12,690 nucleotides of DNA from Candidatus Hydrogenedentota bacterium (GCA_029974275.1 JARKSN010000033.1:1-12690), one strand, 5' to 3'; positions 136 to 9,333 are shown, numbered from the stretch's first letter. Made by a program: numbers and translations. The notes: generated by a model from the letters alone, not told the origin.

Positions 136-482
136 ATGAAATCTGGGGAGTCTATGAGAAATAGTGAACGAGATTCCCCGTTTTTGGGCGCGGCAACACG
201 ACTCGTGGGCTGCGTTGGTGCAACCGGAAAAAATGGGAGGATAGTGACATGGGTGCAGTGGCGAAAGGGGTGGCAATGGCGGCGATACTGGCTGTGGGAT
301 TCGCCGTCACGGCTCAGGCAACAGTCTTGACTTTCGACGACGTGGGGCCAAACATGACCGCCATTCCCAACGGCTATGGCGGTTTCGACTGGACGAATAT
401 GTCGGTTGCCGATAGTCGTGCAGACTACGACGCCTCGCCGGGATACGTCACGGGCGTGGTCTCCGATTATTTCACCGCGTAC

Positions 483-981
483 CACTATTGTCCCAACGTT
501 TTTGAATTGCTGTTTGCAGGGGATTGGTATTCAAGTGGTTAGAACCTAAAACTCGTTTTTCGATATTGAGTCAAGTGCCGATTCTTGGTCATCCTTGCGG
601 ATTCGCACGCAAGGAGGCACCTCAAGGATTCGCGCTCTCAAACGGTCTTCTCCCAGTTGATGGGCTTTCTCCCCAGGCACGCGTTCAACCAATGCGTCAA
701 GCGGTATCGTGGCAACCACAGGGTCCACACCTTCTACGGCACCTCCGAGAACGCCGTGAAGGCCCAAATCTGGATCGCCATCGCCACGTACGTGCTCGTG
801 GCCATCGTCAAAAAGCGCTTGGGCCTAGATCGGAGCCCCTACACAATTCTACAGATCTTGAGCGTGGCACTATTCGAGAAAACGCCCATTTTACGGGCAT
901 TTTCGCCAACCAACTGCGAATCTGAAAACATAGACTTCTCTAACCAATTGAATCTATTCGACTAACGTTGGGACAGTAGTG
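483..981 (+). mobile_element. 499-bp internally deleted (non-autonomous) IS4-family element
   Basis: Left TIR CACTATTGTCCCAACGTT (483-500) and right TIR AACGTTGGGACAGTAGTG (964-981) are 17/18 complementary. The element is flanked by the 9-bp direct repeat ACCGCGTAC (474-482, 982-990) and carries a fused transposase remnant. Confidence 0.93.
585..965 (+). pseudogene. IS4-family transposase remnant: DUF4372-like N-terminus fused in frame to the C-terminus, DDE core deleted
   Basis: N-terminal QTVFSQLMGFLPRHAFNQCVKRYRGNHRVHTF is joined directly to C-terminal YGTSENAVKAQIWIAIATYVLVAIVKKRLGLDRSPYTILQILSVALFEKTP...QLNLFD*. RBS AAGGAGG (611-617) precedes an in-frame AAG (624-626) where ATG is expected. 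The stop TAA overlaps the right TIR. Confidence 0.88.
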
Positions 982-1395
982 ACCGCGTACAATCAATGGG
1001 GGCATGTTGCGACGATTGCCGCTTCGACATTCACCTTCACCGGAGCCTATTTGACCGCCGCCTGGAATGAAGGCTTGAACATCGACGTTCTGGGCTACCG
1101 GAACGGGTCGCTGGTGTACAGCAGCACGGTCGTTGTCGATCCCTATGCGCCGACCTGGTTCGCCTTCAACTACGTGGACATAACCAGCCTCGTGATGCAA
1201 TCGTATGGCGGCGTCGACGTCATACCCGGAGGAGAGGGCGTGCATTTCGTCATGGACAATTTCACGTTCAACGAATCTCCGGTCGTTCCCGAACCCGCAA
1301 CGCTGTTGCTCTTGGGCGTGGGCATTGCCGGAATCGGAGTGCGCCGTTTCCGCCGCTAATCACCGGTAATCAAAGGCATACAGGACAGCATCATG

Positions 1396-1505: not shown

Positions 1506-1638
1506 GCCCTAGGCCCCTGTGCGCTCTGAAGAGCCGGCCGTGCGTTGGAGGGGGATGCCATGCGTTCTGCGGGGAAAACATATTCCGTGGAAGGAATGCG
1601 CCAGCCAAGCGGTAATAGCCGGGAACGAGGATGGCCGA

Positions 1639-3345
1639 TTGATCGAATTTGACTGTCCATATTGTGGAAAACGCTTCGGCGTAAGCGAAGAGCACGCTGG
1701 CCGGGCAGGGAAGTGTCCGTCATGCCACAGCAGCATCGAAGTGCCTGCCCCGAACGGATCAGGACGATTTGATGATCTCAGCGCCGAGCAGCGCGTCGAA
1801 CTTCTTCTTCGCGGCATCCGCGACATCAGTCTGCGCTACCGGGAGCAGCGCGAGCAATTTCGAATCCTGCACGAAAAGGCGAAAGTCCTTCACAACACCG
1901 CCACCAAGGCTCTCCAGAAAAACCAAGAATTGCGCCTCGCAAAGGCTCAGCTCGGGGAAGCGCAGGCAATGCTCGCGGCGCTGCGCCAGGACTTGACGCA
2001 GACATCCCAAGCTCTTGGAACGGCGATCGAACAACGGGACCGATTCGCCGACGAAGTCAACGAACTCCGTCAAGAAATAGAACGTCTGGAAACTCTTGCC
2101 GCCGGATCCGAAGCCGTGCGCATCGAAGCGGCGCGCGCGAAAGAGCTTGAGGCGGAAGTGGCGCGCCTGCGCGAACACGTCTCGGACGTTCGCTTGGCCA
2201 GCGGCGCCGAAGTGGACCAGCGCATCGCCGCCTTGCGCGAGGAACTGGAGGCGCTGCATTCCGAGCGCGACGTCCTCCTGTTCCGCATAGAAGCCGCTGA
2301 AACCGGTCGTGTGCAAATGGACGCCGCTTGCAGACAAGCCGACACCGCCATGCAAGACATCCGGGACGAGCTAGGCAAGATGCACGAGTTCGAGGGACGT
2401 TGCGCCGCCCTGGAGACCGAACGCCTCGCCTTGCGCGAAGAAATGCGCGAAACTGCGGCTGCCGCACAACGCATTCAGGCCGAACTCCAGGAAACGATCA
2501 AGGCCTTGGGCGCGGCGGAGGCGCAAACCGACGAATACCGCCGTTCCAGAGACCGCGCCGCCGAAGAAAACGACATGCTGCGCGCCTCGTTGACGGCGAT
2601 TGAAGAGCGTTTTCGAGAGGTCGAATACCGCGCAGGAAAGGCCGATGTCTTTGAGCAAGAACGCAACACCGCGCAACGTCTTTGCCGTGAGCTTGAGGAT
2701 CAACTGGCGCAACTCCGGGAAGGATGGGGCCAACTTGCGCTCAACTCGGACCAGGCCGCCGCGCAGGCCGCTCAAGCCTTGCTCGACGCCCAACAAGCCG
2801 CCGAACATTTAGCGAACGAAAAAGCCTGCCGGGCTCAAACAGAATCGGAACTGGCGCGCGCCGTGGAAGCGCGCGACGCGGTGCAAGCGCGTCTCGACGA
2901 AACCCGAAGTCGTCTCTCCCTTCTCGAAGAAACGGAGCGCGACGCACGCGACGCCTCCGCCCGGTTCCGAGAGTCCCAAGCGCACGTCGAACGCCTCACG
3001 ATCGAATTGGCGCAGTCGGCCCAGGCGCTTGGATCCGCCGAAGCCAAAGCGGACATTGCGACGCGGGAATTAGACAAAAAACAGGCCGAGGCGGATGAAC
3101 TTCGCGCGCGCCTCGATGCCGCATTGGCGGAGCAAACCTTCCCATGGAGAAACCGGACAGCAAGAAGCGAAGAGCAGGCGCCCAGCGAGAAAGAAACGGA
3201 AGATTGGGAAATGGAGGCCGTTCCGGAAGACGTGGAAAAAGAGCTGGAGTTTGTGCCCGAGGTGCTTGACGATGAGGCGCCCCTCAGCGACGAAATGATG
3301 AGGACCCTGTTGCGCTTCATTGCGCCTGAAGAGGAGAAACGGTAG
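1639..3345 (+). CDS. Zinc-ribbon-headed long coiled-coil protein (~568 aa), function unknown
   Basis: Probable TTG start at 1639 after RBS GAGGA (1627-1631); the ORF track extends to 1519. The N-terminus MIEFDCPYCGKRFGVSEEHAGRAGKCPSCHSSIEVP is a CxxC-x16-CxxC zinc ribbon. It is followed by ~450 aa of A/E/L/R/Q-rich heptad sequence, an acidic tail and a short terminal helix (DEMMRTLLRFIAP). No signal peptide or TM helix. Confidence 0.85.
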   Translation: MIEFDCPYCGKRFGVSEEHAGRAGKCPSCHSSIEVPAPNGSGRFDDLSAEQRVELLLRGIRDISLRYREQREQFRILHEKAKVLHNTATKALQKNQELRLAKAQLGEAQAMLAALRQDLTQTSQALGTAIEQRDRFADEVNELRQEIERLETLAAGSEAVRIEAARAKELEAEVARLREHVSDVRLASGAEVDQRIAALREELEALHSERDVLLFRIEAAETGRVQMDAACRQADTAMQDIRDELGKMHEFEGRCAALETERLALREEMRETAAAAQRIQAELQETIKALGAAEAQTDEYRRSRDRAAEENDMLRASLTAIEERFREVEYRAGKADVFEQERNTAQRLCRELEDQLAQLREGWGQLALNSDQAAAQAAQALLDAQQAAEHLANEKACRAQTESELARAVEARDAVQARLDETRSRLSLLEETERDARDASARFRESQAHVERLTIELAQSAQALGSAEAKADIATRELDKKQAEADELRARLDAALAEQTFPWRNRTARSEEQAPSEKETEDWEMEAVPEDVEKELEFVPEVLDDEAPLSDEMMRTLLRFIAPEEEKR

Positions 3346-3395: not shown

Positions 3396-4142
3396 ATGCA
3401 AAAACTCATTGTCACCTGTGAATGCGGTCAGCGAATGCAGGTTCCCCGTTCCGCCATCGGACGAACGGGAATGTGCCCAACCTGTGGACGCACCATGGCC
3501 ATTTCGGCGGACAACAGCAGCCCGGCGACCTCCTCCCAGCAGCGCGGCCGGTTCTTTTCGGCCAAGACGAGTTGGTGGCGCGGAGGCGCGGCCGCCGTCT
3601 CGCCGACGGACGACGCTAAACGAAAGTTCGGTCAAGCCGTGGACCTCTATTACGCGCGTCACTACGCCGAAGCATTGGCCATTTTCGACGATCTCCTCCG
3701 CCGTTATCCCGGAAACGCCGATATCGAAAGCGGTCGTCGCGAATGTCTCGCTTCCTTGCGACGTCCGCAACAAACCTTGGCGCTGGAGGACAAGGGGGCT
3801 TCCTCCTTCGGAAATGCTGGCGAAGAATTGAACGAGACCATGATCCGGCGCATTGTGTTGCACAAAATGCTGCACGGCTCCACCGACGCCGTCCAGCTTC
3901 AGGCTGCGGAGCTCGCGTGCAAACTGCTGGGACTGTTTGACGCCGATCGGCATGAAAAACGGACTCGTCCTGGGGATCGCGATCCACTCGCCCATCCCCA
4001 GACCGGCAACGGCGGCAACGGACGAGCGGACCGCGATCACGACGACGATGGAAACGGCGCCGCTGCACTCTCCCAGGAAAACGACAGCGACGGCGCGCTG
4101 CAGGAACGGGAGCCGCTCGATCGCACTGCGCCCGAAACATAG
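3396..4142 (+). CDS. Zinc-ribbon plus TPR-like protein (248 aa), function unknown
   Basis: RBS GAGGA before ATG. N-terminal CECGQRMQVPRSAIGRTGMCPTCG (CxC-x16-CxxC ribbon). TPR-like segment FGQAVDLYYARHYAEALAIFDDLLRRYPGNADIESGRRECL, a helical block (IRRIVLHKMLHG...QLQAAELACKLLGL) and a D/G/N-rich disordered tail. Confidence 0.8.
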   Translation: MQKLIVTCECGQRMQVPRSAIGRTGMCPTCGRTMAISADNSSPATSSQQRGRFFSAKTSWWRGGAAAVSPTDDAKRKFGQAVDLYYARHYAEALAIFDDLLRRYPGNADIESGRRECLASLRRPQQTLALEDKGASSFGNAGEELNETMIRRIVLHKMLHGSTDAVQLQAAELACKLLGLFDADRHEKRTRPGDRDPLAHPQTGNGGNGRADRDHDDDGNGAAALSQENDSDGALQEREPLDRTAPET

Positions 4143-5426: not shown

Positions 5427-5652
5427 AAGCCGATTCCCCTCTCACGCACTATGCACGCACGTGCGACTCGCGGCGGCGAAATAAGCGGCATTGAAGCAAG
5501 AGTCCTCCGCCAGAAATGCGCCGTGCGCGTCGCAAATCGCTTCACGGAGCGCATTGGAATACATCCGTATACACCTATGTTAACCATGGCGTGCAAAGAC
5601 GATCTAACGCGAGAGCAGTGCAGAGCAAAAGGGGAAGCGTGAGGTGCGAGTC

Positions 5653-6444
5653 GTGACATCTAAAAAACGTTGGCAAGAAATATACCAGGGCGACAATCCG
5701 CTGACGTTGGCACAACAAGTCGCCCAACAACTCAAGACGTGTTCGCAAGCGCAAAACAATGCGTCCCCGGAAAATCTCAAATATCTGTGGCTGTATTTAT
5801 CCGAAGACGGCGGGAACGAGCAGAAGGACGACCAACCCGTCTACATCGACGCCGTCAAACGCTTGGACGTCGAAAACTGGCTGAACATAATCGACGAGGC
5901 CGCAACATTGGGAGCGGACTCCCTCATCATCACCGTAGGCGAATCCCTTGCGCAACACCCAGAGGTTTGGGAAATCGCCGGATGGGCCCAATCCGCTCAC
6001 AACATCCACGTGGGCATACATGTATGCGAAGGAAGCGTCAGCGAACACGAACGGGCCCGCCTGCGAAATCTCGACCCCCAAAAAACATGCATCTTTGCCG
6101 AACACGAAGCAATGCAGGCGCTGCAACCCCTCCAGCAATTCGGCTTCAAAGTCATTGCCGCCGAAGGCCAAGACCAGCCGGCTGTCCACCCCACCTGCCA
6201 TCTTCCAGAAATCATGGCCTGCATCGGCGCTTCAGGCGTTATGTACACCTGCGGCCTCGTTCTCGGCCATCAACAATTCCGCATGGGCCACTGCAACGAA
6301 AATCGCTTTGATTCACTCATGGAAAACCCCACAGCTCCACACATCGTTCCCGAAGGGTTCTCCAAACTCAAACGAGGCTGCAACGGGTGTCCGCCTTTGA
6401 TGTACCAAAAGCTGCGCGACAACGAACAAGGCGGCGCGCAATAA
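5653..6444 (+). CDS. Radical SAM/SPASM(Twitch)-like protein lacking the CxxxCxxC motif
   Basis: Probable GTG start at 5653 after GAGGTG; the ORF track starts at 5644. LKYLWLYLS, LDVENWLNIIDEAATLGADSLIITVGESLAQHPEVWEIAGWA and IHVGIH resemble PqqE/MftC-type radical SAM cores. C-terminal CHLPEIMACIGASGVMYTC...FRMGH...CNGC resembles SPASM/Twitch. Confidence 0.7.
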   Translation: MTSKKRWQEIYQGDNPLTLAQQVAQQLKTCSQAQNNASPENLKYLWLYLSEDGGNEQKDDQPVYIDAVKRLDVENWLNIIDEAATLGADSLIITVGESLAQHPEVWEIAGWAQSAHNIHVGIHVCEGSVSEHERARLRNLDPQKTCIFAEHEAMQALQPLQQFGFKVIAAEGQDQPAVHPTCHLPEIMACIGASGVMYTCGLVLGHQQFRMGHCNENRFDSLMENPTAPHIVPEGFSKLKRGCNGCPPLMYQKLRDNEQGGAQ

Positions 6445-6610
6445 TAGGCAAAACAGAAACCTGGTAGAACTCGCTGCATGCCCCTGCTTTCCTCCCCAAC
6501 GCTCCGTCTTCCCTGATCTGCGCCACGCATCCCCTTCACGCCACAGAGAAAAATAATCGTACCTCGCCAATCCCTCCGGCGAGATCGACCCCGGGGATTT
6601 CGGCGCCGAC

Positions 6611-6815
6611 CCAAATCCGCGCGTAAGAACGGGGCCTCGTGGGCGGGCCCTGAATTGAGTACCGCAAATGTTGAGTAATCGCGCACTGGATGGGCCGCAC
6701 ATCTGCCAAGAGTCTCTTGATCTTGTTGGCGATGCACAAGTGGCGTTGCAGCTCGGCAGAATAAGGCCAAGATCAGTGTCGTACAAGAATCCGAACTTCT
6801 TACGCGCGGATTTGG
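6611..6815. mobile_element. ~205-bp MITE-like non-autonomous element
   Basis: Perfect 19-bp TIRs CCAAATCCGCGCGTAAGAA (6611-6629) / TTCTTACGCGCGGATTTGG (6797-6815), flanked by the direct repeat CGCCGAC (6604-6610, 6816-6822). No coding capacity recognised. The ends are ambiguous by 1-2 bp because the direct repeat extends to GGCGCCGAC. Confidence 0.8.
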
Positions 6816-7083
6816 CGCCGACATGGCATCTGGAACTGCTTTTCCAAAAAGAGTATAGTAAAGACACGTTGGCTTGTCTGCCGCGACACATGTGGTTGTG
6901 GCGATCCGGGCTGTGTCGCGTATATGTTGTGTTAAGTCGGGCATTACATGGCTTCTTGGATATCTCGCCCCGGAAGCTGTCCCTTGAGGAGGCAAAGAAC
7001 GCGTGCGTTCCATTGATGCGGCCGCCCGACGGCTGTATGCTGGCGGGAATGAGAGTGGCGCGAGTGCATCGCGTGCGTGGCCA

Positions 7084-7974
7084 ATGGTTATCCGATACGA
7101 CCGATATTGGGAGGCATGGAGCTCAGCCCAACGAGTTCGGCGCGCGATCCTCGTGTCCTTCATTTTACACGGGCTCGTAGCGGGAGCAGGTTTTTTTGTC
7201 GCGCAATACCACCCCCCCAAGCCTTCCATGACCTTGTACGAAATCGAGATGATGGCGATGGGACCTGCGGGAACCCCGCCCCCAGGTCCATCGGCAACGC
7301 CCGCGCCGTCACAACCCGCGCCCCCATCGCCGCCGCCGGAAGCGCCCCAACCCAAGGAGCCTCCAAAACCGGAACCCAAACCCGAACCGAAACCGGAGCC
7401 CAAGCCAGAACCGAAACCAGAGCCGAAACCAGAACCCAAGCCGAAACCAGAGCCGGTGAAACCCAAAGACGATCCGAAACCCAAGACGCCTGTTAAAGAG
7501 AAGCCCCCTGCGAAGAACGATTCTCCCAAAGATCAGGCGAAGTCTTCTCCGAAACCAGAGCAAAAGACCGCTTCGGCGCTTACCGGACCCTCTGGGACGC
7601 AGGCAACGTCGGCCCAGCAAGGTGGCGGAGGAACGTCGGTCGACCCTTCCGTGACAGGCGTTGCCATGGGATCGCAGTTCCCTTCGGAGTTGGGATATTG
7701 GGGACGTCGTGTGCAGGTAAAGGTATCGCAGGTTTGGGCGGCCCCAGCCGGCATGCGTCTTGTTGCGGGACAAAACCAAGCCGAAGTGGCCTTCTGGGTG
7801 AGTCGTCAAGGAAACCTTTTGGGCGAACCGGAAATTATCAAGGAAGCCAGCGATCCGGACCTTGCTGCGTCGGGCGTGCAAGCCATCAAGATGAGCGCCC
7901 CCTTCCCGCCTTTGCCTCCCGACTTCCGGGAAGAGAAGGTCCAGATCGTCTATGTCTTCACCTTTGCGTCATAA
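7084..7974 (+). CDS. tolA: TolA/TonB-family energy transducer (TM anchor, Pro-rich linker, TonB/TolA C-terminal domain)
   Basis: N-terminal TM helix with S-x3-H (AILVSFILHGLVAGAGFFV), a (PKPE)n linker, and a C-domain VKVSQVWAAP...AEVAFWVSRQGNL...AIKMSAPFPPLP. Lies directly upstream of tolB. Alternative start GTG 7003 (GAGGAGG at 6986-6992). Confidence 0.8.
   Translation: MVIRYDRYWEAWSSAQRVRRAILVSFILHGLVAGAGFFVAQYHPPKPSMTLYEIEMMAMGPAGTPPPGPSATPAPSQPAPPSPPPEAPQPKEPPKPEPKPEPKPEPKPEPKPEPKPEPKPKPEPVKPKDDPKPKTPVKEKPPAKNDSPKDQAKSSPKPEQKTASALTGPSGTQATSAQQGGGGTSVDPSVTGVAMGSQFPSELGYWGRRVQVKVSQVWAAPAGMRLVAGQNQAEVAFWVSRQGNLLGEPEIIKEASDPDLAASGVQAIKMSAPFPPLPPDFREEKVQIVYVFTFAS
7363..7455 (+). repeat. Coding 12-bp degenerate tandem repeat: (PKPE)x6 followed by PKPKPEP
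   Basis: CCN AAR CCN GAR units with synonymous variation, encoding the Pro-rich periplasm-spanning linker. Confidence 0.85.
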
Positions 7975-8037: not shown

Positions 8038-9333
8038 ATGCGAGGATTTTTTGCAGTGGTCATAATCATGGCGTGCGCCTTCTCGGCATCGGCCCAAGTG
8101 TTGCGGCTGGAGACCGTAGGATCGGCGTCGGATCAGCGAATTCCGATTGCCATTCCCGCATTTTCCGCTCCCCCGGGACAAGAGGCCTTGGGGCAAGAAC
8201 TCGCGGCAATCGTGGCCTATGATCTTGATTTCAGCGGCGTGTTCCGGGTGCTGCCGCGAGACTCCTATCCTGCCGGTTTCGCCGGCTCCCCCCGCGATCC
8301 CAGCCAGATCGATTTTGCGGCGTGGCGGGCTTCCAAGGCGGACTATTTTCTGCACGGATATGTCTACACGAGTGGCTCCACCCTTTCGTTCGAATGTCAG
8401 TTGTTCGACGTGATTGACTCGCATCGAGTCCTCGGCAAGGTGCACGAAGGCGGACAACAGGCAAAACGCCGGATAGCGCACCGCGCATCGGACGACATCC
8501 TGCTGCAAGTGGATGGAATCGAAGGCATTGCCACGTCTGCCGTGGCGTTCAGCGGCGGAAGCACCGGACGCAAGGAAATCTACATGGCCGACTACGACGG
8601 CATGAACGCGCGCCAACTCACGCACTACAACTCGATCAGCATCCTGCCCAAGATATCCCCAGACGGCGGAAAAATCGCCTACACGTCCTTCCGGCAAGGG
8701 GCTCCCTGCCTCTATGTCCTCTCCGTTGCTTCGGGATCCTCTACGTTGTTATCCAAAATGGTCGGCCTGAACATTTCCCCCTCCTGGGCGCCCGACGGCA
8801 GGACCCTCGCCATTACCCTGAGCAAAGACGCCAACCCGGAGATTTATCTCATCAACCCAGACGGAACGGGGCTTCGGCGCCTCACAAACGACAAGGCCGT
8901 CGATACGCAGCCTGCGTTCAGTCCGGACGGACGCCAGATCGCGTTTGTCAGTGATCGGTACGGCTCCGGACAGATTTGCGTAATGAACGCCGATGGCAGC
9001 GGGGTGCGGCGTCTCTCCATGCAAGGGGGGCGCTCGACCGACCCCGCTTGGTCTCCAGACGGAAAAAGCATCGCCTATGCCGTCGAAGGAGGCGGCATCC
9101 AGATATACGTGATGGACGCCAACGGAGGCAATCCACGGCAACTCACCCGAGCGGGAAACAATGAGAAACCCTCGTGGTCGGCGGATTCACGGCATGTCAT
9201 CTTCACCTCCTCCCGCAGCGGCTCGTCGTCGCTATGGGCTGTGAACATAAAGACGGGTCAAGAACGCCGCATTCCCAATTTGCAGATGGCCTGTCAAGGA
9301 CCGTCTTGGGGACCGAGGCGTTCGTCCCCGTAA
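8038..9333 (+). CDS. tolB: Tol-Pal system beta-propeller protein TolB
   Basis: Sec signal peptide (AFSASA|Q), TolB_N domain (RIPIAIPAF, IVAYDLDFSGVF, IAHRASDDI), EIYMADYDG, and PD40 repeats (SPDGGKIAY, SWAPDGRTLA, AFSPDGRQIAF, AWSPDGKSIAY, SWSADSRHVIF). RBS AGGAG. Confidence 0.93.
   Translation: MRGFFAVVIIMACAFSASAQVLRLETVGSASDQRIPIAIPAFSAPPGQEALGQELAAIVAYDLDFSGVFRVLPRDSYPAGFAGSPRDPSQIDFAAWRASKADYFLHGYVYTSGSTLSFECQLFDVIDSHRVLGKVHEGGQQAKRRIAHRASDDILLQVDGIEGIATSAVAFSGGSTGRKEIYMADYDGMNARQLTHYNSISILPKISPDGGKIAYTSFRQGAPCLYVLSVASGSSTLLSKMVGLNISPSWAPDGRTLAITLSKDANPEIYLINPDGTGLRRLTNDKAVDTQPAFSPDGRQIAFVSDRYGSGQICVMNADGSGVRRLSMQGGRSTDPAWSPDGKSIAYAVEGGGIQIYVMDANGGNPRQLTRAGNNEKPSWSADSRHVIFTSSRSGSSSLWAVNIKTGQERRIPNLQMACQGPSWGPRRSSP

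Follow-up and report, generated by a model that had tools for sequence, protein, structure and literature searches.

A small radical-SAM descendant without the radical-cluster motif keeps a Twitch-type four-cysteine site across Candidatus Hydrogenedentales

The window, a 12,690-nucleotide stretch of Candidatus Hydrogenedentota DNA, encodes a member of an undescribed family of pseudo-radical-SAM proteins, which is unusual in being minimal, partner-less and order-wide. By fold the family descends from the radical-SAM superfamily and by sequence it is a Twitch protein, but it is not a radical-SAM enzyme. An earlier, sequence-only reading of the window had proposed a repurposed non-radical descendant of this superfamily, possibly from an undescribed family, and predicted fold, motif loss and selection now support that proposal. 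The role of the auxiliary cluster in SPASM/Twitch enzymes is an open question in the field, probed so far by engineered knockouts (PMC9012708, PMC10470005). The family is a natural, small (~250 aa) and apparently soluble radical-cluster knockout, selected across a whole order; it would allow work on the auxiliary cluster in isolation, and it shows function to be possible without SAM chemistry. Our literature search, from which most subscription journals and supplements lay outside, found no paper on the family.

The open reading frame

The 263-aa pseudo-radical-SAM/Twitch frame (5653..6444, +) is open throughout, from GTG 5653 to TAA 6444, and a Shine-Dalgarno-like GAGGTG (5641..5646, +) lies 6 nt upstream of the start; the frame had already been described as intact and preceded by a ribosome-binding site. 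Position 5653 is the likely start because homologues begin at the matching place, their starts aligning with this GTG. Residue numbers are counted from 5653; those of the sequence-only reading, counted from 5644, are 3 higher. Conservation is given for 105 distinct, full-length genes from the retrieved family loci. Start codons in these, picked by alignment, were GTG in 68/105, ATG in 33 and TTG in 4, and the frequent GTG starts may reflect a deliberately modest translation.

A strict scan gave no promoter upstream of the window gene. No conserved operator was noticed by eye in the 105 upstream stretches, where sigma-70-like boxes (unscored) were frequent, and the search for a conserved RNA element near the gene returned only tRNAs in 19 sources, none of them in the window. 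Contigs from four RNA runs of one study, which were chosen by this gene and carry neither strand nor level, covered 5677-6340 piecewise and left most of the window uncovered, a weak sign of expression.

Loss of the radical-SAM motifs

Strand beta1 (Y44-Y48; 5782..5796, +) contains an invariant tryptophan, W46 (105/105 genes; pN/pS 0.02). After LKYLWLYLS, where CxxxCxxC is expected, the window protein continues with EDGGNEQKDDQP, which is without cysteine, as first noticed from the sequence. CxxxCxxC was absent from all 105 genes, and so were four variant three-Cys spacings; at the motif position it occurred in none of 96 proteins, one of which has that spacing solely in an unrelated Cys-rich loop. 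The former CxxxCxxC loop (5797..5862, +) has no conserved Cys, varies in length and sequence, is modelled at pLDDT 67-68 and shows a pN/pS of 0.42. The segment from W46 to W76 is 16-35 residues long, and 70/96 proteins have no Cys within it.

To place the SAM-binding motifs we used a joint alignment of the family with 61 intact radical-SAM proteins, in which the proposed equivalences of VGES to GGEP and of VCEG to TNG hold. The VGES columns (5935..5946, +) read G57/G58/E56/P57 in the 61 intact enzymes, and in the family GGEP is found in 0/105 genes with E97 retained in 9/105. The columns of VCE read T50/N59/G50 in the intact enzymes; TNG remains in 1/105 family genes, and the window protein has VCEG at 6022-6033, directly after H123 (6019..6033, + for H123 and the decayed motif together; H 88, Y 11 and F 4 of 105). 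At the decayed ribose motif (6094..6102, +), the serine present in 58/61 intact enzymes is F148 in the window protein and F/L/V/Y/M in the family, and the acid at position 150 is variable. Set against the 61 intact enzymes, all three groups of columns (GGEP, TNG and ribose-Ser) have become random or hydrophobic in the family. By the same alignment, D81-E82 in helix alpha1 (5893..5898, +), found in 105/105 genes and shared with 46 (D) and 40 (E) of the 61 intact enzymes, are helix positions inherited from the latter.

The barrel has been shortened as well, in agreement with the short core described earlier. The distance from W46 to C182 has a median of 129 residues in 15 family members versus 235 (205-264) in the 61 intact enzymes, and between the TNG position and the first Cys of the Twitch domain the median is 56 versus 152. 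Relative to intact enzymes ~95 barrel residues are deleted; profile-profile gaps against the SPASM set fall after strand 4 (~16 residues) and after strand 5 (~65-70). Because of the established roles of the lost motifs, radical chemistry and SAM binding by the family appear very unlikely.

A Twitch-type domain with four retained cysteines

The C-terminal part of the protein forms a Twitch-type domain, C182-x2-P...G195-x4-C200...G212...C243-x2-C246 (6196..6390, +; pN/pS 0.13). The four Cys codons lie at 6196, 6250, 6379 and 6388 and FRMGH at 6277-6291, so that the cysteines first listed as 185, 203, 246 and 249 are present together with this motif. All four are kept in 103/105 genes, with an overall spacing of 18/43/3: C182 and C200 are 18 apart in all genes, and C200 and C243 are 43 apart in 98. 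A HMMER alignment sets them opposite C169/C187/C232/C235 of BtrN (spacing 18/45/3), and P185 of the C-x-x-P Twitch signature is found in 94/105 genes, as in BtrN. The window protein has Cx12Gx4C, within the SPASM/Twitch hairpin definition of Cx9-15Gx4C with a downstream G.

Matches to SPASM models are mostly below their cut-offs. Pfam SPASM (PF13186) scored 14.2 bits on residues 182-247 of the window protein versus a cut-off of 21.5 and matched 18/21 members at E up to 1 (best 5.6e-5), and TIGR04085 matched 79/96 members at E up to 0.1, above cut-off in one (genome G053). The second-cluster SPASM motif Cx2Cx5Cx3C...C is absent, the chain ending ~17 residues past C246; beyond C246 there is no Cys in 91/105 genes and one in 14. 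The C-terminal domain is, as judged from its motifs, Twitch-type with one cluster site rather than two-cluster SPASM. The partial barrel expected in the sequence-only reading is present in the model, with radical-SAM enzymes as top structural matches, and is followed by a Twitch rather than a two-cluster SPASM domain. The extra cysteines pointed out at 193 and 217 (here 190 and 214) are present in the window protein, but position 190 alternates C/F/Y at 46/42/17 in the 105 genes and 214 is Cys in just 8/105, so neither is a conserved ligand.

The four conserved cysteines are predicted to form a single, fully ligated [4Fe-4S] site; they could instead hold zinc. According to PMC9012708, knocking out the radical cluster of BtrN leaves the auxiliary cluster in place; it is ligated by four Cys, has a potential below -660 mV and is not reduced by dithionite. 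PMC10337720 describes this cluster as inert to Fe exchange. By analogy, because the BtrN cluster survives the knockout, resists dithionite and does not exchange iron in these sources, we suggest that the family's cluster would be a stable structural cofactor. Folded alone and without an alignment, the Twitch domain reached a pLDDT of just 37.

Predicted fold and ancestry

A profile from 36 intact radical-SAM/SPASM proteins found the window ORF at E 1.5e-17 among the 31,907 ORFs of the genome. Profile-profile comparison gave a probability of 99.2% against a Twitch-like set and, from beta1 to CxxC, of 99.5% against a SPASM set, and a library scan with the window protein returned two radical-SAM families, both sub-threshold (E 0.01-0.02). 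A structure model was built with 96 aligned sequences on protein P0002, which differs from the window protein at three non-conserved positions. With a mean pLDDT of 89.9, it contains five barrel strands (44-48, 90-95, 119-124, 145-149 and 166-169) as well as the Twitch hairpin, and has one helix towards each terminus (18-34 on the N-terminal side); the predicted fold is a five-strand partial barrel plus a Twitch domain. The top two Foldseek matches were BtrN structures (4m7s and 4m7t). In a wide structure search, rows 1-14 were all radical-SAM enzymes (Z 9.5-14.7), the first unrelated fold following at Z 6.7; PqqE 6c8v came first (Z 14.7, rmsd 3.5, 181 residues) and BtrN scored Z 11.7 (rmsd 3.9, 174 residues). 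Substrate-bound BtrN 4m7t gave Z 12.1 (rmsd 3.8, 189 residues), residues 38-253 of the model lying on residues 1-250 of the chain. The similarity to radical-SAM and SPASM/Twitch proteins is therefore strong, where its absence would have spoken against the sequence-only reading.

Two elements are specific to the family. The N-terminal P-F/L-x-L-P helix (residues 16-34; 5698..5754, +) corresponds to model helix 18-34 and contains no RRE domain. In helix alpha2, the motif W111-A-Q113-x-x-H116 (5983..6000, +; W in 105, Q in 100, and H in 83 or Y in 21 of 105) is not conserved among the intact enzymes of the joint alignment and is a candidate binding surface. Invariant residues at the predicted pocket positions, assigned by alignment and strand alternation, are hydrophobic; the family-specific polar conservation (Q113, H/Y116 and H/R230) and the N-terminal helix are predicted from the alignment to lie outside the pocket.

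In trees of 76 and 70 rows over 197 columns, the second a quick tree with six long-branch rows dropped, the family members grouped as one clade (SH-aLRT 100) at the end of a long stem, and no sister group received support. The short barrel shared with BtrN may be convergent, because these trees do not settle on a parent subfamily.

Distribution, conservation and selection

The family is present in 119/133 genomes of Candidatus Hydrogenedentales, a lineage known mainly from metagenome-assembled genomes, and in 80/84 high-quality ones, nearly always in single copy. Among 135 genomes of the phylum 122 were matched, three of them weakly (E about 1e-4 to 1e-5), and the two from other orders gave no family match; pilM is retained at an equal rate (119/135). 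Extra matches in the order were weak matches to intact radical-SAM proteins or contig-end pieces, except in a single genome that has a second full copy; of these two, one is 97% identical to another family's gene and possibly mis-binned. We rejected the idea of an intact orthologue in the other-order genomes: the best weak match, in genome G002, lies by inspection within a TatD-like ORF, and the remaining ones are located in or beside ordinary radical-SAM ORFs.

A word search returned 21 proteins of 246-329 aa, two of them named as Candidatus Hydrogenedentes hypothetical proteins. The family profile, run against 1.84 billion entries, scored 94 cluster representatives at or below E 1e-30, with the next non-family match at 6.3e-12; among the 46 weakest rows 36 have CxxxCxxC, and 19 of 20 scanned match radical-SAM/SPASM models. 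A pattern scan of 185,579 species genomes, which detects only genes keeping one of two patterns, yielded 85 confirmed stretches. Of the 80 listed, 58 bear Hydrogenedent- in their titles; among the remaining 22, 21 lie at already-known places of the window's order and one is a short match (E 7e-5). In the ESM Atlas the family is one cluster of 110 "hypothetical proteins", mostly from Hydrogenedentota. No fused form was seen at E 1e-8 among 7,992 longer candidates, which argues weakly against fusion, and none of 25 pattern matches in phages was confirmed. In the searches made, the family was not found outside Candidatus Hydrogenedentales, and its gene is a clean marker for the order. It is also a source of misannotation, three homologues being labelled "radical SAM protein with 4Fe4S-binding SPASM domain".

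Selection on the family is purifying. Values of dN/dS were 0.054-0.154 in 13 non-overlapping pairs, and pooled pN/pS rose from 0.02 in beta1 through 0.13 in the Twitch domain and 0.18 in the barrel to 0.28 in the N-terminus and 0.42 in the old loop. Besides the Twitch cysteines, W46, D81, E82, W111, G195, V203 and P247 are invariant. Loss of the radical motif and retention of the four cysteines are hence conserved under dN/dS<1, the pattern that the sequence-only reading had proposed to test for, and no close homologue among the 105 genes keeps CxxxCxxC. Simple decay is rejected by frames open order-wide and by these dN/dS values. In the same genome pairs, the median identity was 37-40% for the family gene, 36% for HDOD, 51% for PHP, 66% for FGGY kinase and 68% for RibH; the family evolves at the pace of a signalling protein, matching HDOD and not the neighbouring enzymes.

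The gene is kept with or without a heme-copper oxidase, which is found in 46/94 genomes. In the window's own genome neither heme-copper oxidase nor cytochrome bd was found, and since the gene is kept there, an FNR-like oxygen switch is disfavoured.

Gene neighbourhood

The window gene is solitary, with a GT4 glycosyltransferase gene on one side and tolA/tolB-like genes on the other. The ~560 bases that follow it (6445-7002) contain no convincing ORF or Rfam match and, on the minus strand, a terminator-like hairpin (6561-6585); downstream of this gap are a TolA/TonB-like gene (7003-7974) and TolB (8038-9333). Across 41 long loci and the 105 genes the neighbours vary, and no active radical-SAM gene was seen among the conserved ones. 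A pilM gene lies within 3.5 kb of 24/105 genes and an HDOD gene within 3.5 kb of 34/105. Upstream, among 84 genes with 2 kb of sequence, we found an FGGY kinase in 23, pilM head to head in 19, DUF6807 in 8, carA facing in 5, a small unknown gene in 4 and others in 25. Over all 105 genes the FGGY sugar kinase is directly upstream in 26, in 25 of them within 30 bases. Downstream and tail to tail, among 85 genes with 1.5 kb, a Nif11-like gene occurred in 21 and an HDOD/MshEN gene in 11.

Several families share the order pilQPONM, family gene, Nif11-like gene, HDOD, coiled-coil, PHP, nusB, ribH, which is probably ancestral. Because this old block also holds the housekeeping genes nusB and ribH, its synteny need not be functional. 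Elsewhere in the window, the proteins of 1519-3345 and 3396-4142 (both +) begin with a CxxC...CxxC zinc ribbon, followed by a long coiled coil in one and by TPR in the other; HDOD/MshEN proteins begin with the same type of ribbon.

The Nif11-like protein is leader-only, with 78-94 aa in 25 sequences, and ends at ELSxE with no double-glycine site or core. Its gene was found in 26/135 genomes, tail to tail with the family gene in 23 and still behind the HDOD gene in the remaining three, and it was unmatched in families f1 (0/53, with no match in the window's own genome either), f7 and f8. Because it stays with HDOD when away from the family gene, the Nif11-like gene belongs to the HDOD operon. 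Such genes are translationally coupled to HDOD/MshEN, for example at L046:7752-7991 (+) and L056:8697-8933 (-).

A second, unrelated pseudo-radical-SAM protein of ~640 aa is near-universal in the phylum, with matches in 121/135 genomes (L217:4984-6912 +, that is G000:C174:21983-23911; also L218-L221). It has an RRE-like N-terminus by inspection, no CxxxCxxC and a GNAT-like C-terminal domain; it has lost the first auxiliary-cluster Cys and keeps CxxCx5CGGG...C. Its closest models are SCIFF/nif11/QhpD-type maturases, far below cut-off. In 5/5 genomes examined it is the last member of a conserved gene series, preceded by a pair of GNAT-like genes and by genes for a membrane protein, an ABC ATPase and a permease.

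The Nif11-like protein, the FGGY kinase, the genome's own SPASM enzyme and the second pseudo-radical-SAM protein were considered as obligate partners of the family and rejected, their distributions not matching that of the family gene. The kinase query matches 33/135 genomes, the window's own not among them. Of the eight radical-SAM proteins of the genome that were scanned, the best-scoring SPASM enzyme was the one profiled, with a close match in 2/135 genomes.

Comparison with known systems

The closest likeness is to BtrN, which shares a length of ~250 aa, a short barrel and a C-x-x-P...G-x4-C...C-x-x-C Twitch domain with four aligned cysteines. Only BtrN, however, has CxxxCxxC, binds SAM and oxidises a cyclitol, whereas the family is without SAM motifs and adds an N-terminal helix; identity between the two is 12-16%. 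BtrN is part of a biosynthetic cluster, and the family gene is vertically inherited and single copy. The family is built like BtrN minus the radical half, and works like nothing characterised. SPASM peptide maturases (PqqE, SuiB, SkfB, CteB and anSME) gave the highest structural Z (PqqE) and profile probability, but the family lacks their radical loop, RRE, ~95 barrel residues and second auxiliary-cluster motif.

Other proteins with a radical-SAM fold and no catalytic motif are catalogued as TIGR04150, TIGR04347, TIGR04304 and TIGR04321. Most of these families are paired with an active enzyme or a peptide in a patchy cassette. The present family is stand-alone, order-wide and 236-280 aa long, versus 390-510 positions for the three catalogued models that we searched, which points to a role unlike that of accessory partners in patchy cassettes. 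A TIGR04150 (GG-Bacteroidales) cluster is a structural neighbour of our model (TM 0.55); the TIGR04150 model (cut-off 250 bits) had no match at E 0.1 in the window's genome and was not listed for the window protein. TIGR04347 (halophile pseudo-SAM/SPASM, cut-off 525 bits) was above cut-off in 0/5 genomes, the family gene not being among its matches at E 1e-10, and TIGR04321 (spiro-SPASM, cut-off 250 bits) gave three matches, none above cut-off and none to the window gene. TIGR04304 (GeoRSP SPASM) weakly matched 11/96 members (best E 4.2e-4), with no active paralogue among the conserved neighbours. A Nif11-class maturase cassette (TIGR04064, TIGR03798) was not found, domain-level matches being weak; as for a Nif11-class precursor, the neighbour is leader-only, scores 22.9 bits versus a cut-off of 32.3, is convergent and is coupled to HDOD.

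Engineered knockouts (BtrN C16A/C20A/C23A and PapB delta-RS) resemble the family in having an auxiliary cluster without the SAM cluster (PMC9012708, PMC10470005), which in the family is predicted. The family differs from them in being a natural, old and selected state, in which the SAM-binding half of the barrel has been pruned too.

Two other groups of radical-SAM proteins were observed in the order. Several Hydrogenedentales genomes carry an expanded clade of ~400-aa Twitch-type radical-SAM enzymes (PTxRCNLxCxIC...CxEPW), whose genes stand two or three in tandem (L198, L200, L202, L207-L211, L213 and L216). In genome G132, L222:2963-4949 (+) encodes an apparently split, degenerate radical-SAM/SPASM pair of 422 and 244 aa.

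Possible functions

Our preferred but tentative reading, with a probability of about 0.45, is that the protein is a non-enzymatic binding module, adaptor or regulatory, with one buried [4Fe-4S] cluster, as predicted. We favour it because the gene's evolutionary rate matches that of HDOD and because the invariant pocket positions are hydrophobic, polar conservation lying outside the pocket. In the descent from a radical-SAM/Twitch ancestor, the radical-cluster and SAM motifs have been lost and the four-Cys auxiliary site has been kept. The cluster, fully ligated and stable, would chiefly hold the fold, so that only loaded protein would be competent; retention of the gene in genomes with and without terminal oxidases agrees with a stable cluster. 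Hydrophobic residues (W46, H/Y/F123, F148, C/F/Y190 and V203) would fill the old active site, and the N-terminal helix and W-A-Q-x-x-H would form a partner-binding surface. Against a binding module, H123 and S/T94 (each in 88/105 genes) could be catalytic, the fast rate equally fits a relaxed enzyme, and gene order is fluid. A buried cluster of very low potential would also be a poor sensor, and the regulatory step is one that we infer.

As to what such a module might control, surface motility is our leading guess, though a weak and doubtful one, made because the widest-spread gene order places the gene between pilMNOPQ and the HDOD/MshEN c-di-GMP protein. Two points speak against a pilus link: in the window the gene has no pilM nearby, and the block includes housekeeping genes. 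It is likewise improbable that the protein was stripped at the Hydrogenedentales root to become a new Fe-S regulator that ties type IV pilus and c-di-GMP signalling to the status of the cluster or the redox state. If it was, the phylum would offer natural cases of each SPASM-type cluster working on its own, the second pseudo-radical-SAM protein being the one that keeps only the other auxiliary cluster.

The alternative that survives best, though we regard it as unlikely, is a non-radical enzyme or small-molecule receptor, in which the cluster or zinc is structural and a pocket of W46, S/T94, H123 and V203 binds or converts a metabolite; by analogy with Twitch dehydrogenases this may be a sugar or cyclitol. 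The invariance of W46 and V203, the strong constraint on beta1, the BtrN-like C-x-x-P signature and the FGGY kinase upstream of about a quarter of the genes are in its favour. However, H123 is replaced by Y/F/Q/C in 17/105 genes, the family evolves faster than the neighbouring enzymes, and the kinase is matched in a minority of genomes that does not include the window's.

Less probable again is a stand-alone low-potential electron carrier to or from Fe-S enzymes, including the cell's active radical-SAM enzymes. Ligation by four Cys is typical of transfer clusters, and with the radical loop gone the cluster could be exposed. A 260-residue scaffold is nevertheless costly for a ferredoxin's job, and there is no redox gene among the conserved neighbours. 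According to PMC10470005, cluster-deleted PapB can still reduce an unrelated radical-SAM enzyme; the transfer, however, needs the RS or the second auxiliary cluster and not the first, which is the one that the family keeps by homology. The resistance of the BtrN cluster to dithionite (PMC9012708) also counts against a carrier.

Slightly further down in our estimation is a role as non-catalytic subunit in the modification of peptides or proteins, with an active radical-SAM enzyme, the leader-only Nif11-like protein or the second pseudo-radical-SAM protein as binding partner. It would fit the weak match of 58/96 members to the nif11 maturase model (best E 2.1e-6), the core-less Nif11-like gene lying tail to tail in 23 of the 26 genomes having one, and the wide occurrence of the second pseudo-radical-SAM protein; catalogued pseudo-radical-SAM proteins, moreover, sit beside active paralogues. 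Yet the Nif11-like gene is missing from f1, f7 and f8 and follows HDOD when moved, no active radical-SAM gene was seen among the conserved neighbours, the best-matching SPASM enzyme of the genome has close matches in 2/135, and the second pseudo-radical-SAM protein was not found, at the cut-off used, in 9/14 f7 genomes. Of the functions first listed for the protein, a peptide-binding partner is the weakest, since an RRE domain is missing and we found no active enzyme with a matching distribution.

A cryptic radical-SAM enzyme that binds a radical cluster or SAM via other ligands is highly improbable. C30 and C109 are each Cys in 78/105 genes, and H116, H123 and H230 are common; but C30 and C109 barely co-vary (both in 63 genes, one alone in 15 and 15, neither in 12), the window protein has A109, alternative three-Cys spacings occur in 0/105 genes, and the GGEP, TNG and ribose motifs are lost with the later strands. 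A decaying pseudogene or recent dead duplicate, for which nothing but the motif loss speaks, is next to impossible given frames open order-wide (among the full-length matches listed, one has an internal stop), a dN/dS of 0.05-0.15 and one clade on a long stem.

At the start of the window, a Pfam-less ORF (249-542) and a PEP-CTERM ORF (979-1359) flank the remnant of a DUF4372 insertion sequence (~585-965); 249-1359 (+) is probably a single interrupted gene. RNA contigs cover 158-520 in two runs.
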